Translations under genes and position numbers: made by a program | Shown here: one piece after another, positions 3,351-64,000 of the stretch | Numbering within the stretch: position 1 is the stretch's first letter | Layout: each line of letters begins with the position of its first letter | Assembly: GCA_963664405.1 (NCBI GenBank) | Contig: OY761158.1 | Span: forward strand, 6,432,001 to 6,496,000 | Reading direction: 5' to 3' | From: Thermoanaerobaculia bacterium | Lineage (GTDB): Bacteria; Acidobacteriota; Thermoanaerobaculia; Multivoradales; Multivoraceae | DNA: 64,000 nt | The notes under the pieces: generated by a model | The model's input: the letters and a program-made list of their open reading frames with translations, nothing else | What the model was told of the DNA's origin: nothing | The model's database searches: none

Positions 3351-4162
3351 CGGTCTCGCCCCTCTAGGGAATTGAGTGACCAGTCGTAGTCGAAGTAACG
3401 CAGTCGAAGCCCCTCCGTTTCGACCAACGCGGCAGCGATCTCCTCTTCGGCGTAGAGGGCTATGAAGGCCGGAATGGTCTCTGCCCGGGGGCTCCAGCCG
3501 GCCATCGTGAAGTCCTCTGCGTACCAGTCGAAGTAGGCTGAGAGATTGAGGACGTCTTTCTCCATCCGCACGTTCTGGGGGTCGCGCAGAAAGACTCGGG
3601 TCCGCGCTTCTATCTGCTCTTCGAGCTTCTCTCCGTCGAAGGCCCAAGGTGGCAGAGCGGCGCAGGAAGTCGAAGCGCAGTTGACTACGAAGTGAACTCT
3701 CGGGTCTTTGAAGAAGGGTCGGAGCAGGTTGTGCTCGATACCGTCGAGAGTGAGGTCGTAGCCTCCGACTCTATGTGTAGCCTTATCCCAGACGCCGCTG
3801 ATCTGTCGGATCGAGGTGACTTCAGGGTGGTCGAGGATCGAGGCCACGGTCAGGGCATTGTAGGCGTTGAGGAGAAGGGCCTCGAGATGGGACGGTGCCA
3901 ACTGCTCGAGGTCGGCGTTTGCGATTGCGGCCAGATAGAGATCGAGAGTGGTGCGATGCTCTCCCAGGTAGGAGTAGTCGATCCTGCCGTCACGCACGGC
4001 TGCTCTCAACAAGTCATCCCAGAGATGGTTGTCGAAACCCTGAGTGCCGTCGCTGAGAGACGCGAGGACCCGCTCGGCGATGTCGCCCGCCGCGGGACGG
4101 CTCTCCGGAGCTCCGCAGCCCAGGAGAGCGGCGAGGGTCGCGGCAGCGAGGATTTGTCGCAT
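3347..4162 (-). CDS. DUF547 domain lipoprotein
   Basis: Lipobox LLGC; LNAYNA, LDGIEH, DPRVHFVVNCASTSC and YDWSLN motifs. Confidence 0.85.
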   Translation of the reverse strand: MRQILAAATLAALLGCGAPESRPAAGDIAERVLASLSDGTQGFDNHLWDDLLRAAVRDGRIDYSYLGEHRTTLDLYLAAIANADLEQLAPSHLEALLLNAYNALTVASILDHPEVTSIRQISGVWDKATHRVGGYDLTLDGIEHNLLRPFFKDPRVHFVVNCASTSCAALPPWAFDGEKLEEQIEARTRVFLRDPQNVRMEKDVLNLSAYFDWYAEDFTMAGWSPRAETIPAFIALYAEEEIAAALVETEGLRLRYFDYDWSLNSLEGRDR

Positions 4163-45941: not shown

Positions 45942-45944
45942 GTG

Positions 45945-47708: not shown

Positions 47709-48829
47709 CGGTAGCTGGATCCCCCGCCGTGTCTGATCTCCGCCGCTTGGTCCTCCACACTGGCAGCCACGAATGCCCCGTCGTCGTCGGAGCTGGGGCT
47801 CTTCGAGAGGTCGCCGAGGAGTTGGTGGAGTGGTCAAGGGGGCGAACTGTTTTCGTGCTCTCCTCTCCTCCCCTGCGGGAGCTTCAGGCACACCTGATCG
47901 AGAGTCTGGCGATCGAGGCCGCCGCCGTCAGATCGATCTGGGTTCCGGATGGGGAGTCAGCGAAGACCCTTCAGGTGGCGGGGGAGGTGTGGAGCGAGAT
48001 GCTGCGCCAGGGCGGCAAGCGGGACAGCCGTTTGATCGCCATCGGAGGCGGCACGGTCGGTGATCTGGGCGGGTTCGTGGCCGCCTGCTTCCTTCGCGGT
48101 ATCGAGGTGGTACAGGTGCCCACTACGCTGCTTGCACAAGTCGACGCGTCGGTCGGTGGCAAGACGGCGGTCGACCTTCCGGAGGGAAAGAACACGGTTG
48201 GCGCCTTTCACGATCCGACTTTGGTGGTCTCCGACACCGAGGTGCTTCGCACTCTCGATCGTGGCGAAATTCGTTCAGGGCTGGTCGAGGTGATCAAGAT
48301 GGCGGCCCTGCTCGATCCCGAGCAGCTCGATAGGGTCGAGGATAAGCTCGATCTACTGCTCGCAGGTGATGCGAAAGCCTTGGCGCCCGTAGTTGCCGAT
48401 GCGGTTGCTACCAAGATTAGGGTCGTCGAAGAGGACCCCTTCGAACGGGACCAGCGGCGTCTGCTCAACTTCGGTCATACACTGGGGCACGCGCTGGAGG
48501 CGGCCCTGGGCTATGAGGGCCTCCGCCACGGAGAAGCGGTGGCTTACGGCATCCTCTTCGCCATGCGCCTTGCCAGGAGGCGGAGTCTTCCGGAGGCGGA
48601 CGAAGCTCGTATTCGATCTTTGCTTGCCAGACTGGAAGTGCCTCCCCTGCCCGAGGTGGACCCCAGCGCCGTGCTCTTGGCCATGCAGCGCGACAAGAAG
48701 GCGCGTGAGGGTAGGCTTGCCTGGGTCCTTCCGACCCGAATAGGCGGTGCCGAGATCGTCGAGGACTTGTCGCCGTCGGAGGTAGAGACCGAGCTGCGAG
48801 TCTTCCTCGACACCCCCCAGCCGGTCTGA
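47705..48829 (+). CDS. aroB: 3-dehydroquinate synthase
   Basis: DGESAK, GGGTVGDLGGF, VPTTLLAQVDASVGGK, LNFGHTLGHA, HGEAV. Confidence 0.95.
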   Translation: MTVAGSPAVSDLRRLVLHTGSHECPVVVGAGALREVAEELVEWSRGRTVFVLSSPPLRELQAHLIESLAIEAAAVRSIWVPDGESAKTLQVAGEVWSEMLRQGGKRDSRLIAIGGGTVGDLGGFVAACFLRGIEVVQVPTTLLAQVDASVGGKTAVDLPEGKNTVGAFHDPTLVVSDTEVLRTLDRGEIRSGLVEVIKMAALLDPEQLDRVEDKLDLLLAGDAKALAPVVADAVATKIRVVEEDPFERDQRRLLNFGHTLGHALEAALGYEGLRHGEAVAYGILFAMRLARRRSLPEADEARIRSLLARLEVPPLPEVDPSAVLLAMQRDKKAREGRLAWVLPTRIGGAEIVEDLSPSEVETELRVFLDTPQPV

Positions 48830-48918
48830 GCCCAGGCGCTCGGCTTTCCAGGATATAGAATCCTGTCTATAATAGAGGCCTCACTGCTCCGGCCGCTCGC
48901 CTGGAAGGCACCCCGGCA

Positions 48919-50676
48919 ATGCTCAATTTTCTGCGCCGAATCCGCCAACTCCGGCTGAGGAATCTCCTCCTCGTCTTCCTTATGACTTATGGATGCCTGT
49001 CACTGGTGATCTCGGCTCTGACGAACGTTCGCCAGAACGGGCAGTTGGTCGAGACGCTGGAGCAGATCAGCCTGACTCATCGGGTCGAGGCGCTGTCGCG
49101 TCAGCTGGGTGGCGAGGTGAGCTCCGGCCAGCAGCTCCTTCAGCAGCTGGCGGATACTCTGCTGTCCATACCGTCCAGCGGAGTTTCCTCCGGCGTGCGG
49201 GATCGGTGGGTTGACGAGTATCTGCGGACCTTCGCTGAAAAGAACCAGCTCCTCCGCTACGTTCGAGTAGCCCTGGTGGAGCAGGGGCGAGAGTTTGGTC
49301 CAAGCGCCCTGCCGGCCGAAGTCGAAGAGGTCATGTCAGAGGCTATCTCCGACGCCGTTTTGCAAGGGAGTGGAGGAACGCGCTTTGTTCTCCTCGCCGA
49401 GACCAAACAGCCGGCGGTTGTCATTACCGAGGTAGGAAGTCTTCGTGGCGCTCAACAGGCGGGGGTGGTCCTCACCGCTCTGGTGCCGCTCGATTTCCCG
49501 CCCGAAGGCCAGACGATGACCTTCTTGGTCGATTCCGAAGGCGCCGTACTCTGGGCGGAGGACCCCGACCCGGCTTACCTCGAGGCGCTCGGTGAGTCGA
49601 CTCTGATCGCGGACTTTGTCAATCACCCCTCAGTTTTCGTTTCTGAGTACTGGCAGGAGATCGGGGACTTGCGCCAGCGAGTGATCGCCCAGGTCAGCCC
49701 GATTGCGCGACTGGGTTGGGGCGTTGTCGTGCAGCAGCCCAAGTCGACTGCGTTCGGTGTCGCCAGGCAGGTGGTCAATTCGACCCTGGTCTCGGCGCTG
49801 TTGATGCTGGTGCTCGCTTTAGTGTTCGCGGTCGGAGCAAGTCAGGTCGTGAGTAGCCCGATTCAACGCCTAGCCGAGAGAAGCTCCGAGATCGCCGCCG
49901 GCAACTTCGGGGGGCGCGTACCCCCGGGGGGGCTCAGTCGCGAGCTGGTCAATCTTGCCGATAGTTTCAACGTCATGAGTGGTCATGTCGAGAAGTCGGT
50001 TGAACGCCTCCGCCGGGCAGCCGAGGAGAATCACGAGCTCTTTCTGGGCTCGATTCGAGCCATTCTGGCAGCCGTAGAAGCGAAGGAGCCCTACACGCGA
50101 GGTCACTCTGAGCGAGTTGCTGCATTCAGTCAGGCGATCGCCCGCCATCTTGAAAGTGATGCCGAGTTTCAGGAGCAGGTCTGGGTGGCCGGGCTGCTCC
50201 ACGATGTCGGCAAGATCGGTATCGACGACCGGATCCTCAAGAAGGGTAACGCCCTCACCGAGGAAGAGTTCGAGGAGATCAAGCGCCACCCGATTATCGG
50301 TGAAGAGATCATGGCGTCGATCGACCGTCTCAGCTATAGCCTGCCGGCCATTCGCTGGCACCACGAGAAGTGGAACGGTCGTGGCTATCCGGATGGTCTG
50401 CGCCGTGAAGCCATTCCCTTGATGGCTCGTATTGTCAGCGTTGCCGACTCGTTCGACGCAATGACCACGCAGCGGGTCTACCAAGAGGCGATGTCGCCTC
50501 AGGAGGCCGTGAGCTGGATCCGAAAGCAGAACGGGATCGCATTCGACGCCAGGGTCGTCGAAGCATTCCTCAAGGCCTACCTCAAGGAGGAGGTCAAGGC
50601 GGTCGACTCGAGCCCGATCGTGGCGGCACCCGAGGAGCCGATCGCGCTTGCGGTCGGGGACAGCGTCTACACCTAG
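48919..50676 (+). CDS. Membrane sensor (Cache-like + HAMP) HD-GYP phosphodiesterase
   Basis: Two TM segments, HAMP, YTRGHSERV, LHDVGK, HHEKWNGRGYP. Confidence 0.92.
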   Translation: MLNFLRRIRQLRLRNLLLVFLMTYGCLSLVISALTNVRQNGQLVETLEQISLTHRVEALSRQLGGEVSSGQQLLQQLADTLLSIPSSGVSSGVRDRWVDEYLRTFAEKNQLLRYVRVALVEQGREFGPSALPAEVEEVMSEAISDAVLQGSGGTRFVLLAETKQPAVVITEVGSLRGAQQAGVVLTALVPLDFPPEGQTMTFLVDSEGAVLWAEDPDPAYLEALGESTLIADFVNHPSVFVSEYWQEIGDLRQRVIAQVSPIARLGWGVVVQQPKSTAFGVARQVVNSTLVSALLMLVLALVFAVGASQVVSSPIQRLAERSSEIAAGNFGGRVPPGGLSRELVNLADSFNVMSGHVEKSVERLRRAAEENHELFLGSIRAILAAVEAKEPYTRGHSERVAAFSQAIARHLESDAEFQEQVWVAGLLHDVGKIGIDDRILKKGNALTEEEFEEIKRHPIIGEEIMASIDRLSYSLPAIRWHHEKWNGRGYPDGLRREAIPLMARIVSVADSFDAMTTQRVYQEAMSPQEAVSWIRKQNGIAFDARVVEAFLKAYLKEEVKAVDSSPIVAAPEEPIALAVGDSVYT

Positions 50677-50684
50677 CGCCGGTA

Positions 50685-51638
50685 GTGACCGAATCGAGCG
50701 CAGATAGCGATCCCGAGAGCAGCGCCAAGGCGGGGCTCTGGGCCAAGCTCAGGCTCGGCTTGAGCAGGACCCGCGGCCAGCTGGTCGATCGGATCGGTGC
50801 GGCGGTCGAGGGAAGGGGAGTTAGTGATGAGGAGGCTCTCGAGGCTCTCGAGGAAGCCCTCATTGCCGCCGACCTTGGTGTCGATACCTCTCTCGAGCTC
50901 ATCGAGCGGGTGCGAGGCGGGCTGCGGCCCGGGGAGATCGGAGACAGCTTCCGCCTCAGAGAGATGCTTCTGGACGAGATCTCTGTGCTTCTCCTAGATG
51001 CTCCACCGCTCCAGCAGGTGACGAACAGCCCGGTGGTGAGCCTCTTGGTGGGCGTGAACGGCGTGGGAAAGACCACCACCATCGCCAAGCTGGCCAAGCT
51101 CTCGGTCGACCGAGGGGAGAGAGTGCTGATCGCCGCAGCGGACACTTTTCGAGCGGCTGCGATCGAGCAGCTGATGGTATGGGGAGAGCGTCTAGGGGTG
51201 GCGGTCGTCAGACAACAGCAGGGCGGCGACCCGGCGGCAGTGGTCTTCGATGCCCTTCAGGCCGCGCGCGCGCGTGGTATCGACCACCTGATTGTCGACA
51301 CCGCGGGGCGGCTTCATACCAAGAAGAATCTGATGGAAGAGTTGGCGAAAATCGGCCGTATCGTTTCTCGGGAAGGGGATGGTTTCGTTCGCCGCACTCT
51401 CCTGGTACTCGACGCAACGGGCGGTCACAATGCTCTCCAGCAGGCCAAAGACTTCAATGCGACTGTCGCCATCGACGGAGTGGTCCTGACCAAGCTGGAT
51501 GGGACCGCCAAAGGCGGCATTGTCGTAGCTCTCGCGCGCGAGCTGCGCCTGCCGGTGGCGTTTCTCGGAGTGGGTGAGGGCGCCGACGATCTGGTCCCCT
51601 TTCTACCCCGGGATTACGCAAGGGCTTTGTTGGGGTAA
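50685..51638 (+). CDS. ftsY: SRP receptor FtsY
   Basis: GVNGVGKTTT, DTFRAAA, DTAGR, TKLDGTAKGG. Confidence 0.97.
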   Translation: MTESSADSDPESSAKAGLWAKLRLGLSRTRGQLVDRIGAAVEGRGVSDEEALEALEEALIAADLGVDTSLELIERVRGGLRPGEIGDSFRLREMLLDEISVLLLDAPPLQQVTNSPVVSLLVGVNGVGKTTTIAKLAKLSVDRGERVLIAAADTFRAAAIEQLMVWGERLGVAVVRQQQGGDPAAVVFDALQAARARGIDHLIVDTAGRLHTKKNLMEELAKIGRIVSREGDGFVRRTLLVLDATGGHNALQQAKDFNATVAIDGVVLTKLDGTAKGGIVVALARELRLPVAFLGVGEGADDLVPFLPRDYARALLG

Positions 51639-51660
51639 GGACCCACTCTGATGTTTTCCA

Positions 51661-51789
51661 GCTGGTTCCTTCTCATTCGGCTCAGTCGCTAAAGTCCTGC
51701 TAGTTCAAGGACTTGCTTTCCTTCTGGTTCCTGCTGGTTCGTGGAGCGGGGTCTCATTCTTCTCAGTCTGTTAGATGGCTGTTAGATGG
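51661..51789. repeat. att-like arm region
   Basis: Tandem 11-bp repeat CTGTTAGATGG (51768-51778, 51779-51789), inverted repeat AAGTCCT-N9-AGGACTT (51692-51714), TCTCATTCnnCTCAGTC twice, CTGGTTC three times. Confidence 0.6.
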
Positions 51790-52756
51790 AATCGCCCACG
51801 ACACGCAGGCCACGGCTCGCAACCTTGGCCTCACGATGGAGACGGCCGATCGTTTGGTCGAGATTGCTCATCGCCGTCTCCGAAGTTTTCTGGAAGAGGT
51901 GTCCGTAGCGATCCATGGTGATCGAGATGGAGGCGTGTCCGAGCTGTGCACTGACGTACTTCGGGGACTCCCCCTGGTCGATCAACAGCGATGCATAGGT
52001 GTGGCGCAATGCGTGGAGGCCAATGGAGGATCGGAGCCCGGCGCGCTCCCGGATCGCGCTGAACTTCCGTCTGTACCATTTGTCGGGATAAGTAGGAGTG
52101 CCTGTACGGGTGTGAAAGACGAAGTCGCTAGAGAGCCCCGGCGATGCCTCACGGTGGCGCTCTAGGGCGCCTAGGACGTTCTGAGGAAGGTCTACGACCC
52201 GGGCTGATTTGTCGGTCTTCGGCGTCGTTACTACGCCCTGATACACGGATCGGCGAATGGTGAGACGGGCACCAGCGAAGTCTTGCCATTGGAGGCCAAA
52301 GATTTCGCCGCGCCGCAGGCCGGCGAAGAGGCCTAGGTGGATGACAGCGCTCTCCTCGGCCGAGTCAGTCACAGCCTCAAGAATGTCTACTATGTCGGAG
52401 TGCTCGAGGAAGTCGGCCTCGCTGCGCTCAATGCGGATTCGCTTCTCGCCGGCAAGCGGATCGCTCGTCATGTAGTGCTGCTTGCGGGCCCAGGCGAAGA
52501 TCGAATTCAGGAGCGTGAAAATATTATTGTGCGTCTTCTTCGAGAGCTCGCCGGCGGCTATCCTGTTAGCCATTGTCTTTCGCCAACTCTGAACGGCTCC
52601 ATCTAGGCTGTCGGAGCGGTACTCCCCGAAGGCCGGGATCAGCTGCCTCATCACTATCGACCGGTAAGACTTCGCCGTGGATAGCTTCATCTCAGCGCCC
52701 ATCTTCAGACGAACTTCGAGCTCGTCCGTGAGCCACTTGTCCAGGAGGTCTGACAT
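51782..52756 (-). CDS. Tyrosine recombinase/integrase, probably lacking its N-terminal arm-binding domain
   Basis: GLRRGE (R), PKT (K), HALRH, LGH and RY catalytic residues. Confidence 0.92.
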   Translation of the reverse strand: MSDLLDKWLTDELEVRLKMGAEMKLSTAKSYRSIVMRQLIPAFGEYRSDSLDGAVQSWRKTMANRIAAGELSKKTHNNIFTLLNSIFAWARKQHYMTSDPLAGEKRIRIERSEADFLEHSDIVDILEAVTDSAEESAVIHLGLFAGLRRGEIFGLQWQDFAGARLTIRRSVYQGVVTTPKTDKSARVVDLPQNVLGALERHREASPGLSSDFVFHTRTGTPTYPDKWYRRKFSAIRERAGLRSSIGLHALRHTYASLLIDQGESPKYVSAQLGHASISITMDRYGHLFQKTSETAMSNLDQTIGRLHREAKVASRGLRVVGDSI

Positions 52757-52875
52757 GAGCAGCGGCTTGACCTTGCGGAAGGTCCTGGTGCGCGTAGCAG
52801 GTAGGATGGATCAACCCATCGCTCGGCACCCAGCTCGACGAGGGTAGAGGTGGGGATTTCAAAGGGGGCTCCGCC

Positions 52876-53289
52876 ATGACCGGTCTCATTCGCGCGTTCA
52901 TCAGATTCAACAAGGGCCTGCTCAAGATGCCCGTTCCCTGGCAGTTGTGGCTCCTGTTGATGGTAGGCATCAACCTGATCGTGCCGCTCTTCTTCCTGGA
53001 CCGTCTAGAGGCGTGGGTGGTCATAGGCGCCGTTCTGCTCAGCATGATGCTGATGACGGCGTTGACAGGACTGGTCGGATTCACACGGCTTCTTGGGCTG
53101 GGACACGTCTTCTGGATTCCGCTCGTTGTCTTTCTGTGGACACGGCTCGAGCAGATTCCAGCCGAGGGCGTCTTCGGCTTGTGGATCCGAGCTCTGATCG
53201 CCATCAATGTCCTCTCGTTGGTCATCGACACGGTCGATGTCATTCGCTACATTGCCGGCGACCGGGAAGAGACGGTCCAGGGGCTCTAG
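52876..53289 (+). CDS. Hypothetical membrane protein (about 4 TM helices)
   Basis: Hydrophobic 137-aa ORF with GC-rich third positions; contains TRLLGLGH. Confidence 0.7.
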   Translation: MTGLIRAFIRFNKGLLKMPVPWQLWLLLMVGINLIVPLFFLDRLEAWVVIGAVLLSMMLMTALTGLVGFTRLLGLGHVFWIPLVVFLWTRLEQIPAEGVFGLWIRALIAINVLSLVIDTVDVIRYIAGDREETVQGL

Positions 53290-53459
53290 TTATCGGAGTA
53301 ATTACGTGTTACCGGCGACGAAGAAGCGCGGGATCTTGGCTTTCTAGCCGCGGTTTTCGGGGCGGCGCCCGACGGCGTGAGCGACGACGGCGACGGTGTC
53401 GGGTCTCTGTAAGTGGGTGTAGATGATGAAAGTCGATGGGGTCAGCGTTGCAGATACAG

Positions 53460-53605
53460 GAGAACCAGGCTCCGGTGCGCTCCCTGTCGGAACATAACGT
53501 TGGCACGGTTGAGGCTGATGGCCTCCACCTTGATGCGAACCTCGCCCTCGCCCGGCTCCGTGAGAGGCAAGTCCTCGATCTTGAGCACGTCGGCGCTTCC
53601 TGTTT
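53460..53605 (-). pseudogene. N-terminal fragment of an MDR-family (quinone oxidoreductase/alcohol dehydrogenase) gene
   Basis: Minus strand reads KTGSADVLKIEDLPLTEPGEGEVRIKVEAISLNRANVMFRQG, cut at its 5' side by the element at 53606; no start codon. Confidence 0.7.
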
Positions 53606-54083
53606 TGAGAGTGAGCACGGTAATCGATGGGAATAAGGGCCATTCTGAGCACGGTGGGTGAGGGAAGGGGTGTTTGGTCCCTCAAGTAGTGTGCTCAAAA
53701 CTAGGTCCGGCGGCATCATCCCCGCCGAAGGCGGGGCGTCCGGGCCTGACGCGCAGTCCATACTTGTTCTTTTCGCTGATCACGCTGAACGAGGGCTGAC
53801 ACGCAGCGATGGCACGAACGGCACGCTATCTGATGGGCGATCGAGGCAGTTCGCCCAGCTTCCATCGCGCCTGGGCCCTGGTTGCGCCCTCAGATACCTT
53901 GAACGGAACCCCCATTCCCACCAGACAAGGTGATCGGGTTTCCTCGAATCGCCATCAAATACCGTGAACAAGGCCGTCTGAGGCAACTGGCAGCGAAACG
54001 CAGCTTCGGCTAAGTCCTTCAAAAGGCTACACGACCATCACTTATCGTGATCGGACCGCCATCGATTACCGTGCTCACTCTCA
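53606..54083. mobile_element. TG...CA non-autonomous element, copy A (478 bp, diverged)
   Basis: 25-bp TIR TGAGAGTGAGCACGGTAATCGATGG...CCATCGATTACCGTGCTCACTCTCA; no flanking duplication. Confidence 0.9.
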
Positions 54084-55016
54084 CCTGCTCGGGCCCACCC
54101 GTAGCGCCCAGCGCTTCCGCGGTCGTCCGGGGCCCCCTGGAGGGAACGTACCCTTCTCCAGGAGCTTAGCCTCGAGGCGTCCGCCTGTCGCCTCCATAAT
54201 CTCGTTGTGGTAGCTCTTCAGGCGTCGGATGATGTCTCGGTCACGGTCGCCCTCTCTGTCGCGGAAGAGCGACATTAGGGCCTCGTGGGGCACCTCGGAT
54301 ACAGTCCGTGCAGCGCCACAGCGTGCGATGAGGAAACAGAGGTAGTCCCAGCCGATCGGGCGATCCATGAAGAGTTTGAGGAGTTCGAGCGGGACAATCA
54401 GGCGGTTGGAGGTATCCGAGAGGTACTTCCAGAAGTCAGCCGAAAGGATCACCCCGTAGGGGTGTGAATCGGGCAACACCAATTGCCCAGCCTTCTCACT
54501 CTTGAGCTGTTTGCTCGTCGGTAGGCTGAAGCGCCGGACGATGAAGAGTTGTTCACCTTCGATACCCTCATCGAGCTCGGCTTGCGAGCGCCCAAACAAG
54601 AGGCGCACCGAGAGGCCCGAGATACCCTTGAAGCGTTGCCGGAAGAGCGCGAGCGTGCGACCGTCCTCGGAGAGGTTGAAGGTTTTGAGGAGCTCGCCGA
54701 CGCGCTGGAAGTGCACGATTGGCGAGCCCTGCTCGATCGCCAGGTGCTGAATCCCGGCGAGGACGAAGCGGTCGGCACCGAAAGGAAGCTCGTTGCCTTC
54801 GGTGGCTGTGTACGTAACGCGCAGCCACATATCGCCACCGAGGCGTAGTGTCCGCGTCAGTGAGCTCGAACCTGCTCTGCGCTTGGGAAGCCCTGCCATC
54901 GCCAGGGCCTTGGCGGTACGGATCGCTTCGATGCGCTGCTGCTCATCGAGTGCCTCGCGGATGGAGACCACCTTCTCGACACGCTCGAGGAGCGCCTTAT
55001 GCTTGCGCTCGTTCAT
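54081..55016 (-). CDS. repA: Plasmid replication initiator, RepA_C (IncW-like) family; stop codon supplied by the element TIR
   Basis: LPFG-x-x-R-FVL motif and downstream pattern resemble RepA_C; iterons directly upstream. Confidence 0.72.
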   Translation of the reverse strand: MNERKHKALLERVEKVVSIREALDEQQRIEAIRTAKALAMAGLPKRRAGSSSLTRTLRLGGDMWLRVTYTATEGNELPFGADRFVLAGIQHLAIEQGSPIVHFQRVGELLKTFNLSEDGRTLALFRQRFKGISGLSVRLLFGRSQAELDEGIEGEQLFIVRRFSLPTSKQLKSEKAGQLVLPDSHPYGVILSADFWKYLSDTSNRLIVPLELLKLFMDRPIGWDYLCFLIARCGAARTVSEVPHEALMSLFRDREGDRDRDIIRRLKSYHNEIMEATGGRLEAKLLEKGTFPPGGPGRPRKRWALRVGPSR

Positions 55017-55064
55017 GGGTTCCGGGCGACCGTAACACGGGCTGTGGAAAGCAGGAGTTTTCCA

Positions 55065-55157
55065 CGTGAACGAGAACGCGAAATCATCGCACCGGTTCGT
55101 GAATGAGGACGCGTAAATACGTGAATGAGGACGCGTTATTACGTGAATGAGGACGCG
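55065..55157. repeat. Iterons (plasmid origin)
   Basis: CGTGAATGAGGACGCG at 55098, 55120 and 55142 (22-bp period) plus degenerate CGTGAACGAGAACGCG at 55065; AT-richer tract follows. Confidence 0.85.
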
Positions 55158-55240
55158 AAATAGTCGGTAAGTACCTATGCCTTCAAGGGACTAGCGCGAG
55201 GGCAGTACCCTCAATATTCTTACAGTATCTACCTAAGCAG

Positions 55241-55395
55241 TAGTAGGGAGGCAGGCTGTGGAAATCTGACGATCTATGGAAAGCTCCCGCCCCAACATCA
55301 CCTCGAGCTCCAGCACCATTCTCGGGAGCTTCCCACAGCTCTTGGAAATCCCGCAGACGGGATTCCCACAGCTTCCACGGCCACGACGACTACTA
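55241..55395. other. Branched stem-loop structure beside the origin
   Basis: Outer GGCTGTGGAA/TTCCACGGCC and TAGTAG/CTACTA stems enclose AAGCTCCCG/CGGGAGCTT and AATCCCG/CGGGATT hairpins. Confidence 0.6.
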
Positions 55396-57580
55396 AAATA
55401 GAGTGGGTTTTCAAGAGAGCCTGAGCGGAGAACCCCCGAAACCGAGTGTTCGTTTCACCATTCGTTTCTTAGAAACGAACGGTTGCCGCGATGCGCGGAA
55501 GAGCGCGCAACCCTTACCAGGGCTTGCGCAGCTGGTTCCCCCCTGGTGTCGGGCTCGCGCCCGACTCCGCGTACCGCCTCTCATTTCCTATCGTCATGAG
55601 AGCTCCACTTCGCTATCGCTTCGTTTCGGGTCTCGCCTATGTCGTTATCACTCTTGGGCTCGACCTCGGTCCGCGGAGTCGGGCGCTGCGCTACCGGCGG
55701 CAAGAGCCGCCTCCCGACACCAGGGGGGTAAGAATTGCCTAGGCAAAGCCGAGGCATCCGAATCGAGCAAAGCTCGAGAAGAAGGTAAGGAGACGCAAGG
55801 CCGAGGCGTGCTGCCTGCCAAATAGCAGGCAGCGTGTTCCGAGAACACTCGGAAAGAAAAGAGAGAGGAACGAAAACGGTTACCCCAAGGTCTCCGTGAG
55901 ATCTCCAGAAAGTCGACTCCTGCTCACATCCCTCATGGTGGCAGACAGCCTCGCTCCGTCAAGGTCGAGGACTCTCTTGACCTCGCCTCGGACTGACTGC
56001 TCGGGGTTTTCCGGTATGTGAGCAGGTAGTCGAAGCTCACGCTAATCAGTAAGCAACAACAGACGTATGAGCGACAGCGAAATGAGTTATCTAGTGCGCA
56101 CACATTTAGACTTTGTGGAGAGCTGCTTTCTACACGAGACGGTCGACTGGAGAGAAGACTCCAGTGGTGTAACTTCGTATGTGGCGAGCAAGCCACTCGA
56201 GTACCGCGTGACCACATATGAGAACGAGAGTGGTGAGATTGAACACAAAGTAGAACGGAATCGGTGAGCTCAAGAAGAGCGTCCAAAGCGACGCTCTTCT
56301 TGCTGGAGACTCCGGAGGCAATAAGTTTCCCAACCACCCCCGTTTTCGTGCAGGAGGTGGCGGACGTCCGCCACCCTTCTTGACGAGAACGCCTCCGATG
56401 CGTCTGGCGGTTGTCCACAGCTTCGCGATTGGACTGCGACCCGTATACTGAAAAGCAAGAGAGATCTTTTTTCGGTTCTAACGACAGCACCTTCACCTCA
56501 CCAACTCGCCTGTCATAGCGTGTGCTGTCTCCGTTCTTCGAGCACACGGCCCTCCATACCCATAGAGGGCTGATGCCCTCGAAGAACAGACAGCCATGTT
56601 GGTGAAGCTCACCCCCTCAAAGAGGAGGAAAACCGAGGGGTAGAGCTCTGTAGCGCTAGTTAGCCGGCCCCTCTTGGCTCGCTCTGCTGCATGCGGGAGG
56701 TGCTGTCAGTGGAACTATTGAAATCACAACAGCACATCCTTGGAGAACGCTCGATTGCGGGGTACCCCCCGCGGCCGTTTGGTATTGCCCTTCCCGATCG
56801 GCGTCATCACCTTTTTGTTATTGGCGCGACAGGCCTTGGGAAGACAACATTTCTTCACGGTTCTTTGATCCAGGACTTGGCGACGCCGGGTGTTGGCGTG
56901 GCTTTCCTAGACCCTGACGGCACGGCAGCGGCTCAGCTCCTCGACTACATCCCACCGTCTCGCACGGGAGACGTCGTCTACTTCGACCCGGAAGACGCTG
57001 ACCACCCAATCGGCTTGAACCTGCTCGATACGCGCGGCGACGTCGATGAGCACCAGGTCGTCGGCGAAGCGGTGTCGATCTTTAAGCGCTTCTGGGGCGA
57101 CAGCTTCATGGCGCGCTCGGAAGACCTCCTTGCGAATACGCTTGCCGCCCTCGTTGAACATGGTGGCCAAACGCTTCTGGGTGCATTGCGGATGCTCACA
57201 GACGCCCCTTATCGGGAGCGCATACTCGCGAAGACGACCAACCCTGTCGTTTTGGGGTACTGGCGCGACGAGTTTGAGCACTACGACGCCCGCTATCGCG
57301 AACAGATGGCCGCGCCCATCCTCAACAAGCTCCGGCGCTTTGTCACCGACGCGCCCATGCGCAATATCGTTGGCCAGGTCAAGAGCGGTTTTGACATCGA
57401 GGCGCTGATGAACGAGGGCAAGATTCTCCTCGCGCGCCTACCGGTGAGAGTGAGCACGATAATCGATGGGAATGTTGGCCATTCTGAGCACGGTAGGTGA
57501 GGGAAGGGTGTTTGGTCCCTCAAGTAGTGTGCTCAAGACTAGGTCCGTCGGCATCATCCCCGCCGAAGGCGGGCCGTCGG

Positions 57581-58944
57581 GGATCCGTCCCGAATGCTGT
57601 GGAAATTGAGAATGGCGTAATCTCCTAGTGGTCAAACACATCGCCGGTTAGGGCGAACGGAGGATTACGCCATGGTGGAGAATATCAACGAGGAAGGGGA
57701 AGCTGCACGCTTCCGTCAGGACATTCGTTCGTTGTTACGCGAGCGTGTTCGTGCGGCGATCGAGATCACACTCGAGGAAGAGCTGTCCGAGGCGCTGGGC
57801 TGCAGCGCCTACGAGCGTTCAGGCGAGCGTGCGGGCTATCGCAACGGCAAGCAGCGTCGTCTGATCACGACGGCGTGTGGGTCGAAGGAACTGGACATTC
57901 CACGAGGACGGCTAGTCGGCGAGGATGGGGCCAGCGTAGAGTTTCGCAGTGCGATCGTGCCGCGTTACGCTCGTCGTACGCAGGAGGTCGATGACGCGAT
58001 CCTGGGTGCGTATCTGGCTGGCGCTAACAGCCGCCGGATCAAGAAGGCATTGGCTCCGCTGCTGGGTGAGGAGCACCTGTCCAAGAGCGCAGTTTCGCGT
58101 GTGGTGTCTCGGCTGAAGGAGCTTTTTGCTCGCTGGAGTGAGCGCGATCTGTCGGAGGAGTCCTACGTGCTTCTGTTTCTCGATGGCTTTCACCTGAAGG
58201 TCCGCTTGGCCCGTCGAGTGGTCTCGGTACCGGTGCTGGTGGTGCTGGGTGTGACTCCGGACGGCACCAAGGTGCTGGTGGCCTTACGTTTAGCCGCGAG
58301 CGAGGCCGCCGAGCACTGGAAGTGGCTGATCGAGGATCTGAAGGCCCGAGGTCTTCAGGCTCCGCGCTACCTGGTCACGGATGGCCACAAAGGGCTGGCC
58401 GCGGCGCTGAAGGCTTGGCCTGAGGTCAAAGTCCAGCGCTGCGTCCAACACAAGTGGGAGAATCTGAAGAAACACTGCCCGGTGCACGCACACGACGAGC
58501 TGCGGCGTGACTGGCACTCGATCGTACGAGCCGAGGACGCGGCACAGGCCCGCAAGGCCTACGCGGCGTTCGTCACCAAGTGGTCGCGACTAGTCCCGGC
58601 GGTGGCTCGCAGCCTTGAGGAGGCAGGGTTCCAGCTACTGACCTTCTACGAGCTCCCCAAATCGCTGTGGAGTTCGGTGCGCACGACCAACGCTCTGGAG
58701 AACCTGAACCGCGAGTTTCGTCGCCGCACTAAAACCCAGGGCTCCTTTGCCACCGAGGCTGCCGGCGTCACGCTCCTCTGGGGGCTCGTCGCCTTCGGGC
58801 AGATACACCTGCGAAGGATTAACGGCTACCGGGCGCTTCAGCTCCTGCTCGAGGTTGAGAGGGCCGCGTAAACGGTAGGATTTAGCAAAAGACGACTCGG
58901 AGGACTACGCCTGAACCCATTTCCACAAAAAACGGGACACATCC
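57581..58944 (+). mobile_element. IS256 family insertion sequence
   Basis: Imperfect TIR GGATCCGTCCCGAATGCTGTGGAAA / GGATGTGTCCCGTTTTTTGTGGAAA; 8-bp duplication GCCGTCGG. Confidence 0.93.
57672..58871 (+). CDS. IS256 (Mutator) family transposase
   Basis: YRNG, LFLDG, VTDG, QRCVQH, TTNALENLNREFRRR DDE motifs. Confidence 0.95.
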   Translation: MVENINEEGEAARFRQDIRSLLRERVRAAIEITLEEELSEALGCSAYERSGERAGYRNGKQRRLITTACGSKELDIPRGRLVGEDGASVEFRSAIVPRYARRTQEVDDAILGAYLAGANSRRIKKALAPLLGEEHLSKSAVSRVVSRLKELFARWSERDLSEESYVLLFLDGFHLKVRLARRVVSVPVLVVLGVTPDGTKVLVALRLAASEAAEHWKWLIEDLKARGLQAPRYLVTDGHKGLAAALKAWPEVKVQRCVQHKWENLKKHCPVHAHDELRRDWHSIVRAEDAAQARKAYAAFVTKWSRLVPAVARSLEEAGFQLLTFYELPKSLWSSVRTTNALENLNREFRRRTKTQGSFATEAAGVTLLWGLVAFGQIHLRRINGYRALQLLLEVERAA

Positions 58945-59879
58945 GCCGTCGGGGCCTGACGCGCAGTCCATACTTGTTCTTTCGCTGATCACGCTGAACG
59001 AGGGCTGACACGCAGCGATGGGATGAACGGCACGCTATCTGATGGGCGATCGAGGCGGTTCGCCGAGCTTCCATCGCGCTTGGGCCCCTGGTTGCGCCCT
59101 CAGATACCTTGAACGGAACACCCATTCCCACCAGACAACGTGATCGGGTTTCCTCGAATCGCCATCAAATACTGTGAACAAGACCGTCTGAGGCAAGTGG
59201 CAGCGAAACGCAGCTTCGGCTAAGTCCTTCAAAAGGCTACGCGACCATCACTTATCGTGATCGGACCGCCATCGATTATCGTGCTCACTCTCAACCGGCG
59301 AGCCTCGGCGAGAGCAACGCCGACCTCCTCGGCTCCATGCTCGTAACCAAGTTCTACCTCGCCGCACTGAAGCGTGGGCGTATGCTCGAAAACGAACGCC
59401 GCGACTTCTACCTCGTCCTCGATGAATTTCAGCGCTTCTCAACCGACACATTCGCCTCGATCGTGGCAGAGGCGAGAAAGCATCGGCTCAATTTGGCTCT
59501 CGCCGCACAGCACCTCGGCCAGACGTCAGACGCGGTGCGAGCCGCTGTCTTAGCGAACGTCGGCACCCTCATTTCCTTTGGTCTCGGCGCCGACGACGCA
59601 CGACGGCTTGAGCCCTACTTCCTTCCTTATTCACAAGAAACCCTTCGAGATCTCGGCCGTGGTGAGGTGGTGGTCAGACTCTTGGCGAACGCCGAAGCCG
59701 GACAGCCATTCCTCGCACGAACGACGCTTCCCGATCGAACGCACTATCACGGCCGCAGTGAGCTTGTTCGCCGTGAGTCACGGCGGCACCACGCGAGCGA
59801 TCGCCAGAAGGTGGAGAAGAAGCTCGCGAGTTGGTACAAGGCCAAGCAGTGAGAGGGTGGCCATGCAAAAGAAAACCGC

Positions 59880-60215
59880 CTAGGCCGAAGCCTGGCGGTT
59901 GAACTCTCTCGTGCGAATCGACGGAGGCCGGAGTCCCTCGAGTCGGCTAGCGATAGCGTCGTCGTCTCCATGACAGTCTAAAAGAATGCCGAGGAGGTGT
60001 GAGCGCCATTCGGTATCGTCGAAGTCGGTGGGTGTCGAGTACTGCTCCATAAGGCGGAATGCGCGCTCTCTGGTGTCATCAGTAAGGTCACCGAATGCTT
60101 CAGGAAAGTCTTCGTGAATGCTCCGAAGCAGCCCGATTGCGTTGCTGAGCCAGCTCCGTGCGCCCTCGAGCTCCATATAGACGAGGGCAATCTCCATTGC
60201 GAGTTGATGCGTCAC
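59880..60215 (-). CDS. Hypothetical protein
   Basis: Open frame with AAGGAG upstream of GTG 60215; no recognised motif. Confidence 0.5.
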   Translation of the reverse strand: MTHQLAMEIALVYMELEGARSWLSNAIGLLRSIHEDFPEAFGDLTDDTRERAFRLMEQYSTPTDFDDTEWRSHLLGILLDCHGDDDAIASRLEGLRPPSIRTREFNRQASA

Positions 60216-60365
60216 AACACTCTCCTTTCGTGGAAAAATCAGTGATGGAAGACCCCAGAACAACCTGAGATGCTCCTCACCGGCGTCCACGAAAGAAGGG
60301 TGCCGTGCGCCCGTTGAGTGACGTTAAGGAAAGAACTATAAGTAGTTGAATACTAAGAGTTTACG

Positions 60366-62090
60366 TTGATTTGTCAAGTATATCCTGCGCGCACCACAGC
60401 ATGGGTTCTGTGCTCTGTTTTGGCCTTGGTAGAAGGAGAGAGCCGCCCATTGCTAGCGCAAGAACCTGTTGGTCTACCGATCGCTGGTCGCTTCAATGAC
60501 AACGTGGAAATCCAGTGGAGTCGGCACACTCTAGAGGCAAGGGTGCGCACCGCCTTCGCGCCAAGCTCCCTCAAGACGCCAGAGGGCAAGGCTTATTGGT
60601 ACCTCTTTCACGAAGGTGACTATGTGGTGGCGTGGGAGTTCGACAGCGATCGCGGCGTGCGAATCACCCCGGGCGGAATGGTGCCCGAGGTGTTCATCCC
60701 ATCAACAAGATACCTTGACGTTCTCGCGAGCGAACCCATTCGCAAAGACCCCGCATATCTTAGGGATCTGAGAAACAAGCACGCGCGATTTGCGGAAGCA
60801 ACCACCGCCATTGCTTGCCTTGTACCAACACGCAAGATCGCAGCCTTCTATCCGCTTCCCTCCGAAACCTCAGGGGTGAAGAATCAGTCAAGCATCTTGT
60901 CCCTCAATAAGATGATGCCGGCATACGAAGAACGAAACGGCTGGTACCGAATTGACCTATTTGACGATTGGATACCCCCATCGGCGATCGAGGCGCGCCA
61001 ACCCTTCAAGGATCGCGGCCGAGACGCGTGTGAGCGACGACCCTCTAAACGCTCATATCGCTTCTCATCTTCAACAGCCTTCCACGCCGGCGCCTCGTCT
61101 CAGACTAGGGTCACAGGCTTTTCCGAGGTTGGCGAGACGGTGCAGACCATCACGACGGAAGTCCCAGGCGGCTGGTTTAGGGTAGAGGGTTTTTCTGGAA
61201 GGAAGGGCTGGTTCCGCGCCACCGATCTCGTGGCCAGTAATACCCCTCGGTCGGCTCCGCCGGTTGACCTCCCTCTCCCCCTATGGGGAAGCGTTACCGC
61301 GAGCGTCCTCAACGTCCGCGACGGGCCATCGGCGAACACAAAGGTAGTTCATACCCTTACGAAGGATTCCCGCGTTTTTCTGTTTGAGCGAGGGGGGGGT
61401 TGGTGGCGCATCACCAAGCTAAGCAGTCCAGGACGTGTTGGTTGGGTATCAGCCTCCCACATCGAGGTCCTCGGCCGGCCGCCGGATCCATGGCCGAACC
61501 CTCCATACTTCGCCACTTTTGATCACCCACTGTCGTCGCAGGGCTCCGGAGAGAGCCGCCAAGACGGTGTCGGCCCGAAAGCTCCGCCCTACCGCAGCGT
61601 CTACCATGAAGCCCTCCTTCCGCTCCTATTGCTCCCCTTTCTTGTCACCGCGACTCTTGTGCGTGGCCTCGAGCGCGACGCAGGAGACTATGGGGTGTGG
61701 CTTCTCTGGGTCTTCATCTTTACTTTCTTAATTGGCTTCATTCCCGCGCCGGAAGGCGTCTTGGTGGTCTTTGGCCTCTACGGGCTCTGTGCGATCTACT
61801 GGCTCTACGAGCTCTTTTTGTTGGTGCACTATTTGATGGTGCCGCACCCGCTCGAAGACGAGCTCAGGAGAGCGGTGGACAACCGCGCAGCGATTGACCT
61901 CGACAAGCTCGAGCGCATTGTGGCCGAGAGCATGGGAGATCTTCCTAAGCGGGGGTATAAACTGAAAAATAGAACTCGCCGCGTGCGTCGACTGATTGAG
62001 CTTCTGAGAGCTGAGCAGGAGCTTTTCCAAGAGCTTCTCGGCCGAGAGCGATTGTTGAACATACTCGAGAAGCTTGAACACTATGGCTAG
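60366..62090 (+). CDS. Multi-SH3 domain membrane protein
   Basis: Clear bacterial SH3 (LNVRDGPS...GWWRI...GWVSASHI), two weaker SH3-like repeats, 3-4 TM helices, helical C-terminus; start uncertain. Confidence 0.72.
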   Translation: MICQVYPARTTAWVLCSVLALVEGESRPLLAQEPVGLPIAGRFNDNVEIQWSRHTLEARVRTAFAPSSLKTPEGKAYWYLFHEGDYVVAWEFDSDRGVRITPGGMVPEVFIPSTRYLDVLASEPIRKDPAYLRDLRNKHARFAEATTAIACLVPTRKIAAFYPLPSETSGVKNQSSILSLNKMMPAYEERNGWYRIDLFDDWIPPSAIEARQPFKDRGRDACERRPSKRSYRFSSSTAFHAGASSQTRVTGFSEVGETVQTITTEVPGGWFRVEGFSGRKGWFRATDLVASNTPRSAPPVDLPLPLWGSVTASVLNVRDGPSANTKVVHTLTKDSRVFLFERGGGWWRITKLSSPGRVGWVSASHIEVLGRPPDPWPNPPYFATFDHPLSSQGSGESRQDGVGPKAPPYRSVYHEALLPLLLLPFLVTATLVRGLERDAGDYGVWLLWVFIFTFLIGFIPAPEGVLVVFGLYGLCAIYWLYELFLLVHYLMVPHPLEDELRRAVDNRAAIDLDKLERIVAESMGDLPKRGYKLKNRTRRVRRLIELLRAEQELFQELLGRERLLNILEKLEHYG

Positions 62091-62700
62091 CAAAAAGAAG
62101 GACGACCAAGAGAGAGAACTCGTCGATCCTGACGACGTACAGACGGCGGAAGAGGCTCTCGAAGCCACCCCAAAAAAACCACTCGTTCCCTCGATTCGCC
62201 GAGCTCGGCCGCCGGCGTTTCTGACGCGAATGACAAGGAAGCGCGTCGAGGCCGAGACGGAGTTTCTTGGGGCGTTAAAGGATCATGACGAAGCTGCCCT
62301 CGACTGGGCCCGCTCCCACAACGCGCTCAGCCCACAGAATCTTGGGAAGGTGAAGGCACTCGACGAAGAGCATCTCGACGAGGCGCTTGAGGAAACGAGC
62401 CAGCGCCGTGAGGTCAGAGCGGCTGAGCACCAGGTCAAGTTGGCGGAATTGGAGAGAAATCTCAGAGACGTAACCGAGCCTCCGAAACCGAAGCCTCACC
62501 GAAAAACGGAGGAAGAGAAGCTCCGAGAAGCAGTTAGGAAAGAGGGGGGGCGCGAGGATGCGCGTACAAGCATCTTGCGAGAGAAACGCATCAAGATATG
62601 CGGCGGCGAGGACCGTGATCCCGAGACCCATGAAGAAAAGCGGGCCTACGGAGCCGTCCAAGGCATCATGGATCGGATCTACAGAGAAGGACTCTCCTAG
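62083..62700 (+). CDS. Hypothetical charged, coiled-coil-like protein
   Basis: Overlaps the upstream stop; K/E/R-rich ORF. Confidence 0.65.
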   Translation: MASKKKDDQERELVDPDDVQTAEEALEATPKKPLVPSIRRARPPAFLTRMTRKRVEAETEFLGALKDHDEAALDWARSHNALSPQNLGKVKALDEEHLDEALEETSQRREVRAAEHQVKLAELERNLRDVTEPPKPKPHRKTEEEKLREAVRKEGGREDARTSILREKRIKICGGEDRDPETHEEKRAYGAVQGIMDRIYREGLS

Positions 62701-62706
62701 GCAACT

Positions 62707-64000
62707 ATGAAGAAGACGATCTTGCTTGGTACTCGCTCAGACGGCTCTCGGGTCGTCTTTCCGGAGCGTCTGCGACAGCGCCACTGTCAGGTAATCGGGG
62801 CTTGAGAGTGAGCACGATAATCGATGGGAATGTTGGCCATTCTGAGCACGGTAGGTGAGGGAAGGGTGTTTGGTCCCTCAAGTAGTGTGCTCAAGACTAG
62901 GTCCGTCGGCATCATCCCCGCCGAAGGCGGGCCGTCGGGGCCTGACGCGCAGTCCATACTTGTTCTTTCGCTGATCACGCTGAACGAGGGCTGACACGCA
63001 GCGATGGGATGAACGGCACGCTATCTGATGGGCGATCGAGGCGGTTCGCCGAGCTTCCATCGCGCTTGGGCCCCTGGTTGCGCCCTCAGATACCTTGAAC
63101 GGAACACCCATTCCCACCAGACAACGTGATCGGGTTTCCTCGAATCGCCATCAAATACTGTGAACAAGACCGTCTGAGGCAAGTGGCAGCGAAACGCAGC
63201 TTCGGCTAAGTCCTTCAAAAGGCTACGCGACCATCACTTATCGTGATCGGACCGCCATCGATTATCGTGCTCACTCTCAGCTCCGGGAAAAGGTAAATCG
63301 AAACTGCTCGAGCTGATGATCCGTAGAGACATCCTCAACGGCACCGGCACGCTCTTACTTGATCCCCACGGATCGCTGTACGACGACATTGTGCGCTGGG
63401 GAGCGGCCGCCGGTCTCATCCCAGAGATGGAGAATGTTCTCCTCTTCGAGCCCAGAGACGAAGACTTTCTCTTTGGCTTCAACCCCCTCAAACTCGACGG
63501 GCTGAGCCGCTCTCAAAGAGAAGACGCTCTTGCAGCGATGGTGCGCGCAATCGGGCAGCTCTGGGGACACGTGGATTTCACTAATACCCCAACGCTCAAC
63601 CGCGGCCTTCCGCTCATTGTCTACACCTTGTGGGCCAAAGGGCTCACCCTCCGTGAGGGTTCAGAGCTCTGTCAGCGCGGTGATCTGCAGCGCTGGGCTT
63701 CAACCGACCTTCCCGACGAGAGTTACCGGCAGGACTGGGAGTATCTGCACTCGCTCACGGATAAAGAGCTCCGCGACGAAATGCGGAGCACCTACAGCCG
63801 CTTCATACCTTTCCGGCAGAACTCGCTGGTGCGCGGCATGGTGACCCAGACCGCTCACTACCTCGACTTCAAGCGCGTGATGGACGACGGTGGTGTGGTA
63901 CTCATCAACCTCGCCAAACTCTCGGAGGACAACAAACGCATCCTCGGCGTGCTCATGATGAACGACATCTTCACCCGAGGACTGCAGCGCGAAGCCGACG
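62707..64000 (+). pseudogene. Second VirD4/TrwB-like ATPase, split within Walker A by element copy C (3' end beyond window)
   Basis: MKKTILLG...RHCQVIGA | PGKGKSKLLE...LLLDPHGSL...GFNPL; removing the insert and one GCT restores GAPGKGKS. Confidence 0.88.
62803..63279. mobile_element. TG...CA non-autonomous element, copy C (477 bp)
   Basis: Same TIRs as copy B and apparently identical interior; 3-bp flanking duplication GCT. Confidence 0.92.

Follow-up and report, generated by a model that had tools for sequence, protein, structure and literature searches.

A MITE (miniature inverted-repeat transposable element) of 477-478 bp is present in three copies within one small island of a Thermoanaerobaculia bacterium genome, inside a stretch of 64,000 nucleotides that we analysed at its full length (hereafter the window; it spans positions 6432001-6496000 of one contig of 6.78 Mb and 62.6% GC). 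The MITE is real and recently active. The same genome holds a related autonomous transposon of 3.56 kb, whose closest named relative, by sequence comparison, is Tn6049 of Cupriavidus metallidurans. We consider it likely that the element is a Tn6049-type MITE moved in trans by this resident transposon, and that its pile-up in the window represents surviving insertions in dispensable DNA. The original prediction, made from the sequence of the window alone, had recognized a MITE and had further suggested IS21-like ends, a preference for the replication and transfer genes of plasmids or of integrative and conjugative elements (ICEs), and possibly a targeting or domestication system. Its recognition of a MITE holds: judged from its sequence, the element is short, ends in terminal inverted repeats (TIRs), is accompanied by target duplications, occurs in 15 copies and has a related autonomous element in the genome.

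Repeat search, the raw sequence and alignment place all three window copies on the forward strand, with lengths of 478 bp for copy 1, 1849 bp for copy 2 (57445-59293 as a whole) and 477 bp for copy 3 (Table 1). Each of them ends in perfect 25-bp TIRs of the TG...CA type, the repeat being TGAGAGTGAGCACGATAATCGATGG in copies 2 and 3 and carrying one substitution in copy 1, and each end contains two subterminal repeats of the type GAKCACGRTAAnnGATGG. Coordinates, orientation, termini and subterminal repeats are therefore as they had been described. The 477 bp shared by copies 2 and 3 are identical, and copies 1 and 3 differ at 24 positions (~95% identity). As had also been noted, the core-gene DNA that precedes the island is free of the element: BLAST found no further copy in positions 1-53605 of the window, and the nearest one lies ~36 kb before the window start. 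With a longest open reading frame (ORF) of 79 codons inside its 477 bp (such short ORFs were not compared with protein families), the MITE lacks a transposase gene, and the element has no match in Rfam at E <= 1.

Copy 2 owes its length of 1849 bp to an IS256-family insertion sequence (IS) nested inside it. This IS measures 1362-1364 bp, with a start that is ambiguous at 57581-57583 and an end at 58944, and it is bordered by an 8-10-bp duplication of MITE sequence, GCCGTCGG(GG). Its transposase matches Transposase_mut at E = 2.2e-87 and the transpos_IS256 model at 295.7 bits, where the cut-off is 150.

Genome-wide, BLAST and a terminus search recovered 15 MITE copies at 14 loci, eight of them plain (477-478 bp) and seven composite (1849 bp), and 13 of the 15 are at least 99.4% identical to one another. 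The nested IS256 occupies the same MITE position in the same relative orientation in 7/7 composites, and six of the seven have a 5-7-bp duplication of their own at the outer MITE ends (the seventh, in a tandem pair, has none), which argues that the composite moved as a unit, at least six times. Of the 11 full copies that this IS256 has in the genome, seven are in composites, and the element shows by example how a MITE can take a complete IS along as its passenger and amplify it. When the 14 MITE loci are taken together with the five loci of the autonomous element, target duplications are found at 16 of 19 (11 of the 14 MITE loci). Their length is 5 bp at nine loci, 6 bp at three, 7 bp at two, 4 bp at one and 3 bp at one. 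The loci without a duplication are MITE copy 1, a copy in pilQ and the tandem pair. A paralogous empty site is available for the MITE at 6396423, which is inserted in a short repeated sequence with at least four other copies (6396003-6397372); an uninterrupted version of this target lies at 2890800-2891687.

The tandem pair, at 3800330-3802657, consists of a plain and a composite MITE placed head to tail only 1 bp apart, with no duplication in the outer flanks. Its arrangement is reminiscent of the abutted ends at which IS dimers and circles are joined in transposition of the IS3, IS21 and IS30 types. Given this 1-bp spacing and the three copies within 10 kb in the window, there is no sign of target immunity.

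Finding an autonomous partner by the ends of the MITE had been proposed as a check; one is present, and it is not an IS21 (istA/istB) element. A terminus search with up to six mismatches returned the MITEs, five 3.56-kb elements, two lone ends and one isolated match with six mismatches. The five elements are intact copies of 3555-3559 bp that are 99.2-100% identical, with four ORFs open in all of them. Their termini differ from the MITE terminus at two positions in the right end and at five in the left end. MITE positions 1-92 resemble partner positions 1-93 at 72% identity, 105-133 resemble 109-139 at 77%, and 427-477 resemble 3509-3559 at 86%, and the MITE interior of ~290 bp has no match in the partner. 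Since the ends match and the interior does not, the MITE consists of the left end and the right end of a relative of the partner element. Both ends carry two 18-20-bp repeats, which are spaced differently in the left and in the right end.

The first partner ORF, orf1, encodes a 212-aa Zn-ribbon/HTH protein with invariant Cys residues (HTH_23, E = 2.6e-5). It is followed by an rve-type DDE transposase of 474/484 aa (rve, 37.7 bits), an ATPase of 281 aa (AAA_22, 80.4 bits) and a fourth ORF of 115 aa without a family match. Against the NCBI curated IS models, the transposase scores 123.4 bits on IS481 (cut-off 224), 64.6 on IS3 and 43.6 on IS21 (NF033546, cut-off 160). IstB_IS21 (PF01695) is absent from the 12 Pfam matches of the ATPase at E <= 0.01, and at the same threshold none of the four ORFs matches TniQ, TniB or Mu-transpos_C. 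The best sequence match of the ATPase in the PDB is MuB (8xvb), which is weak (E = 0.033). When 30 orf1 proteins are aligned, 21 columns prove invariant, among them C-x-C ... CC-x4-C; an AlphaFold model of orf1 (pLDDT 73) found nothing in the PDB at E <= 0.001 with Foldseek and reached a best Z of 4.1 with VIA-align, a result with which a distant relation is still compatible.

These data bear directly on the suggested resemblance to IS21, under which the MITE would derive from an IS21 element and be mobilised by IstA/IstB. The TG...CA ends, the several repeated subterminal sites and duplications of the 4-8-bp type do recall IS21; they are, however, common to several other families. True IS21 copies, with an IstA containing Mu-transpos_C_2 and an IstB, are common in this genome, but the terminus search did not find IS21 ends, and the elements that do have related termini encode a transposase far below the IS21 cut-off, devoid of the Mu-transpos_C_2 match of the genome's true IstA, and an ATPase without IstB_IS21. 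Both kinds of element pair a DDE transposase with an ATPase, and the likeness does not extend to family membership, so that an IS21 derivation is scarcely credible. The repeats of this genome also include an IS21-type element of ~3.39 kb in at least eight near-identical copies, and a 100% identical one is found in a second genome (G061).

The placement of the partner near Tn6049 came from a plasmid collection, in which a translated search with the transposase matched 26 records, 24 of them over at least 80% of the query and 19 from Cupriavidus. The transposase shares 47.9% identity over 97% of its length with the copies on pMOL28, pMOL30 and P. aeruginosa pHS87a (E = 4e-126). On pMOL30 the ATPase (55% identity, E = 6e-109) and orf1 (43%, E = 3e-37) are collinear with those of the partner, and the NCBI annotation gives the order of a 181-aa 'transposase', a 479-aa 'IS481 family transposase', a 277-aa 'AAA family ATPase' and a small hypothetical protein. 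Tn6049 and the partner therefore have in common a size of ~3.5 kb, multiple copies and the succession of a Cys-rich/HTH protein, an rve transposase of ~480 aa, an ATPase of ~280 aa and a small ORF. They differ in that only about half of the residues are shared and in that the reported ends of Tn6049 are 12-bp imperfect repeats of different sequence (PMC4739549); a repeat search on pMOL30 did not recover those 12-bp ends. Passages on Tn6049 describe a 3.5-kb element with 12 copies in strain CH34, all with the 'gspA' ATPase gene (PMC2864759), and a 4-bp duplication around the copy on pHS87a (PMC4739549).

Among the useful results are that a MITE is clearly linked to the Tn6049 family and that this family has a conserved gene core, described below. 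The passages on Tn6049 consulted here mention no miniature derivative, and a search of the literature for the transposase-ATPase gene pair by Pfam names and numbers yielded nothing specific. On this limited literature basis, we know of no earlier description of a Tn6049-family MITE. In one of those passages the module by which Tn6049 transposes 'could not be categorized' (PMC6210171).

Relatives of the transposase are numerous, with at least 7,997 matches at E <= 0.001 among 8,000 scored candidates, and they are encoded in at least 453 stretches of one-genome-per-species contigs. Among the best 79 loci (L036 left out), which belong to many phyla according to their record titles, orf1 accompanies the transposase in 72 loci, and the ATPase does so in 74. 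Contig ends account for most of the missing orf1 or ATPase matches; two loci with full flanks have no ATPase match. The fourth ORF is present in 11 of the 79, all of the closer clade. As judged from these sequences, the three-gene core orf1-tnpA-ATPase is conserved across many phyla. Ends of the type TGAG[AC]G.G.TC.C occur in several of the relatives.

Elements of the IS481 family are single-gene elements of ~1-1.3 kb. The partner shares TG...CA ends and a variable duplication length with IS481 and IS3, whose curated models its transposase matches best, in that order; in contrast to IS481, its transposase stays below the family cut-off (NF033577, 224 bits), and the element is 3.3-3.65 kb long with a conserved ATPase and upstream protein. 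An rve transposase followed by an AAA_22-type P-loop ATPase is also found in Mu, Tn552, Tn5053/Tn402, Tn7 and IS21, and the commonest duplication of 5 bp is likewise shared with them. Arrays of ~20-bp sites with asymmetric spacing in the two ends resemble those of Tn7, Tn5053 and Tn552, for which such an end architecture is described (PMC8649781). Unlike the Mu/Tn7/Tn5053 group, the family has a duplication that is not fixed (3-7 bp, with 5 bp at 9/16), no resolvase or TnsA, and no sign of target immunity. Among non-autonomous elements, Tn3-derived inverted-repeat miniature elements (TIMEs) and the integron-mobilising MITEs of Acinetobacter are derivatives moved in trans, and a 439-bp MITE is a published example of a non-autonomous derivative. 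The present element is like other MITEs in being short and non-coding, in having the ends of a larger element, in its duplications, in its many near-identical copies and in the possibility of passengers. It differs from them in its parent family and in its passenger, a complete IS co-amplified to seven copies.

On the reading that we favour, a Tn6049-family transposon would have supplied the MITE with its left end (~125 bp) and its right end (~55 bp). The transposase would recognise the 18-20-bp repeats at the MITE ends and move the MITE in trans, making staggered target cuts of mostly 5 bp within a range of 3-7. An IS256-family IS would have entered one MITE a single time, and the 1849-bp composite would then have moved at least six more times on its outer ends. 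The window copies would represent three events, one of an older, diverged copy and two of a recent burst, all within one small integrated plasmid-like element. Insertions would persist where they are free of cost, and the island would act as a general sink for mobile DNA. All of this is routine mobile-element biology, with a MITE, its parent and a decaying island.

The distribution of the copies is compatible with such a course. Seven of the 14 MITE loci lie inside mobile elements, namely the island (three), an IS21 istA gene, an IS110 transposase gene, a repeated element by IS200 and group II introns, and a second island, with integrase, NikA and AbiE genes. A helicase-nuclease gene of defence type next to BREX and an IS cluster account for two more, and the remaining five are in ordinary chromosomal DNA (pilQ, the gene of a CCP_MauG protein, a cluster of glycosyltransferase genes, the vicinity of ddl, and the interval between a Meth_synt_2 and an esterase gene). 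A genome-wide copy map had been proposed as the check on the predicted preference for the replication and transfer (rep/tra) genes of mobile elements. Nine of the 14 loci are in mobile or defence-type DNA and five are ordinary chromosomal loci; 12 of the 15 copies are outside the island in varied DNA, which does not support a rep/tra preference. The association of the MITE with mobile and accessory DNA is real and is no stronger than that of the other repeats of the genome. Repeats of at least 400 bp and at least 90% identity make up 9.4% of the genome (283 intervals besides the MITE/partner family); among 266 other repeat intervals, 126 lie within 3 kb of a further repeat, where 33% would be expected at random, and 8 of the 14 MITE loci do, which is no excess over the rate of the other repeats (p = 0.32). 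A rep/tra preference is not needed to account for the pile-up.

Nothing points to a dedicated targeting or domestication system either; other repeats cluster as much. In the form in which selection favoured insertions that silenced the replication and transfer of a costly island, domestication could appeal to the fact that all three insertions inactivate or truncate rep/tra-type genes. Such genes take up ~43% of the island DNA, however, and three random hits would all fall in them with p ~0.08; a single hit would suffice to immobilise the island, and the IS256 and IS21 hits, together with the rearrangement beside MITE copy 1, resemble neutral decay. We regard this explanation as very improbable.

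Several observations do weigh against a passive sink moved by the resident transposon. That the resident transposase moves the MITE in trans is something we infer from sequence, and between the ends of the MITE and those of the resident element there is a divergence of 14-28%. The near-identity of the MITE copies leaves little time for selection against insertions in non-essential core genes. Three of 14 independent loci within 9.2 kb have p = 0.00175 under uniform placement on 6.78 Mb; restricting the effective target to 1-0.64 Mb of dispensable DNA raises this value to 0.08-0.17. The nine of 14 MITE loci in mobile or defence-type DNA compare with none of the five autonomous loci (Fisher p = 0.03, with small numbers and locus categories that are our own), a contrast that the sink model does not predict. 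Of 29 family loci from other genomes, 15 lie within ~3 kb of genes for IS, integrase, restriction/defence or toxin-antitoxin functions, in a scan of 147 of 184 flanking ORFs (37 under 125 aa were dropped) that had no matched control and included several loci from the same genomes. From these flanks and from passages in which Tn6049 is 'often associated with genomic islands' (PMC2864759), a mild intrinsic bias for mobile DNA may exist.

Several of the same facts are arguments for intrinsic targeting, in which the Tn6049-type machinery, through its AAA_22 ATPase and/or orf1, would steer insertion to plasmid, ICE or IS DNA. To the cluster in the plasmid-like island, the seven loci inside mobile elements (nine with the defence island and the IS cluster) and the flanks of the family loci can be added a regional GC content that is lower at MITE sites (0.606 within 2 kb, against a genome mean of 0.626) and an ATPase belonging to the class responsible for target selection in Mu, Tn7 and Tn5053, with MuB as its best PDB match. 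Yet the autonomous copies, which use the same machinery, are in ordinary chromosomal DNA in 5/5 cases (a DUF3604 gene, an SPFH-HTH gene, two 3' gene ends and one intergenic site), and the copy in the second genome sits in a sigma-70 gene. No rep, relaxase or type IV secretion system Pfam match was found in the flanks of any of the 29 family loci, which also speaks against the predicted rep/tra preference, and other repeat families cluster equally. In the target flanks, whose alignment was another check that had been proposed, no consensus is visible; GC within 25 and 100 bp of the insertion sites is not below the genome mean, and orientation shows no replichore-linked bias (3+/4- on one replichore and 8+/5- on the other, with GC-skew extremes at ~2.74 and 6.76 Mb). 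No TniQ/TnsE-like protein was detected among the partner proteins, and orf1 has no significant fold match. On balance, intrinsic targeting seems quite unlikely, and slightly more so the fuller version in which Tn6049-type transposons are biased to mobile or newly arrived DNA through the AAA_22 ATPase and the Zn-ribbon/HTH protein, with their MITEs as serial inactivators of plasmids, of integrative elements and of other ISs. TnsE of Tn7 favours conjugating plasmids, and Tn5053-type elements hunt res sites; if a bias for mobile DNA were true, the family would join them as a transposon that preys on mobile elements.

A different possibility is that the island served as a vehicle, having brought or shuttled the founding MITE and received further hits while it was extrachromosomal and multi-copy or still in an earlier host. 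MITE copy 1 is the most basal in the genome, with its 24 differences and two states in common with the 478-bp sub-lineage: the 478-bp copies at 1311925 and 3800330, which differ from the main 477-bp type at only three positions, have the same additional G at position 62 and the same A at 242. The sequences suggest that the likely order was from a copy-1-like form to the 478-bp type, then to the 477-bp type and finally to the 477-bp type with IS256. The RepA, the iterons, the integrase and the Replic_Relax gene of the island would also suit a vehicle, and so would the relatives that its repA-like gene has in the second genome and the MITE and transposon found there. On the other hand, copies 2 and 3 are of the young type and identical to chromosomal copies, and would accordingly have been acquired during the burst in this or a very close genome; the older copy 1 had already cut repA, no attachment (att) repeat was found for the island, and a search of 60 related genomes did not find the MITE. 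We judge the vehicle explanation unlikely. With copy 1 basal and copies 2 and 3 of the young type, the three window copies go back to three separate insertions, one old and two of the recent burst.

The second genome holds a 100% identical MITE and a 99.7% identical transposon, with flanks that do not match this genome. Identical elements with unrelated flanks indicate that they were exchanged between hosts, and point to recent exchange. The sole MITE of that genome (G061:C5:1369812-1370288; L126 7813-8289) splits the sigma-70 gene between regions 2 and 3, with the duplication CGTGG. Beside it, an NhaA gene is split by an IS21.

In the window, GC falls to 0.57-0.60 over ~52-66 kb in window coordinates. 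This island begins with a tyrosine integrase directly after ftsY, followed by an unknown ORF, a short fragment of an unrelated gene, MITE copy 1, the repA-like ORF, four 22-bp iterons, ATPase 1, an SH3-domain protein, ATPase 2, a Replic_Relax protein and an IS21. IS256 and IS21 insertions are also present in it. No direct repeat longer than 13 bp joins the integrase end with the next 150 kb, and no tRNA lies in window 45000-64000. The island is a small integrated plasmid-like or mobilisable element that has already decayed.

Table 1 Features of the MITE-bearing island, in window coordinates.
Feature	Position	Strand	Remarks
Tyrosine integrase	51785..52756	-	Left edge of low-GC island, directly after ftsY (50685-51635)
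MITE copy 1	53606..54083	+	478 bp; most diverged, basal; no target duplication; right end forms the stop of the repA-like ORF
repA-like ORF	54084..55016	-	311 codons; 3' end cut by MITE copy 1; ~16 codons missing relative to the homologue in the second genome (G061)
Four 22-bp direct repeats, iteron-like	55065..55163		Upstream of repA-like ORF
ATPase 1, N-terminal 251 codons	56691..57444	+	Walker-type, FtsK/HerA/TraD-like
MITE copy 2, left part	57445..57582	+	Element positions 1-138; left target duplication ACCGG at 57440-57444
Nested IS256-family IS	57583..58944	+	Transposase 57672-58871; 8-10-bp duplication of MITE sequence at flanks
MITE copy 2, right part	58945..59293	+	Element positions 129-477; right target duplication ACCGG at 59294-59298
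ATPase 1, C-terminal part	59294..59852	+	Weak TraG-D_C match; phrog_5156
ATPase 2, first 32 codons	62707..62802	+	Reaches the middle of the Walker A motif
MITE copy 3	62803..63279	+	477 bp, main type; GCT duplication at 62800-62802 and 63280-63282; in Walker A codons of ATPase 2
ATPase 2, remainder	63283..64000	+	Continues 295 codons past the window; restored ORF of 567 codons

The genes that the MITE interrupts are plausibly replication and transfer genes, on the evidence of the iterons, RepA-type look-alikes, FtsK/TraD-type matches and the Replic_Relax gene, and the damage to them is as originally read. The stop codon of the repA-like ORF is a TGA contributed by the right end of MITE copy 1. 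ATPase 1, an ORF of 435 codons, is cut by MITE copy 2 into 251 and 183 codons with a 5-bp duplication. In ATPase 2, MITE copy 3 separates the A codon from the P codon of the Walker A motif (..V I G A / P G K G K S); its 3-bp duplication is accompanied there by an in-frame TGA from its left end. Both ATPases have weak FtsK/DUF87/TraG-D_C/TraD matches and both match phrog_5156, the two halves of ATPase 1 at E = 5.6e-22 and 4.7e-16. The Replic_Relax protein downstream of ATPase 2 scores 66.8 bits.

The 311-codon ORF has no Pfam, PHROG or NCBIfam match, and it is called repA-like because of the iterons and of its language-model look-alikes, the ten best of which are RepA_C/RPA/TrfA/Rep3 clusters (0.95-0.96), all of one clan. 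The four iteron-like repeats (CGTGAATGAGGACGCG plus a 6-nt variable part) lie 49 bp upstream of it. Beyond them lies a 20-nt inverted repeat pair, at 55557-55576 and 55667-55686. Homologues of the repA-like gene in the second genome have 61-72% protein identity and show, by ending ~16 codons past the break made by MITE copy 1, what the ORF has lost. Joining the flanks of copy 1 in silico gives a 409-codon ORF, but its left 98 codons are not repA, and a repA that reads through the MITE was rejected. The left flank (53440-53605, minus strand) resembles, by eye, the N-terminal start of an unrelated oxidoreductase-type gene. Together with the missing target duplication, this foreign gene fragment argues that DNA adjoining copy 1 was deleted or rearranged. 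In the second genome, one repA homologue (G061:C4) lies in two permuted pieces (L125 9233-9643 and 14361-14848), the C-terminal part 5 kb upstream of the N-terminal one, which indicates that this element was rearranged too.

Public contigs from four runs of two studies, one of which runs may be the source of the assembly, hold the flank-to-MITE junctions of all three window copies. No joint of an empty site across any of the three was seen in those contigs, which drop rare variants and so are uninformative on polymorphism. Contig depth in these runs is unusable as a copy number and gives no test of a multi-copy plasmid state. The same communities seem to contain related forms of the island. 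In one public contig, ATPase 1 breaks off at 56847 and ATPase 2 follows from 63386, with the intervening 6.5 kb missing, and variant contigs of higher depth cover window 55.5-56.8 kb.

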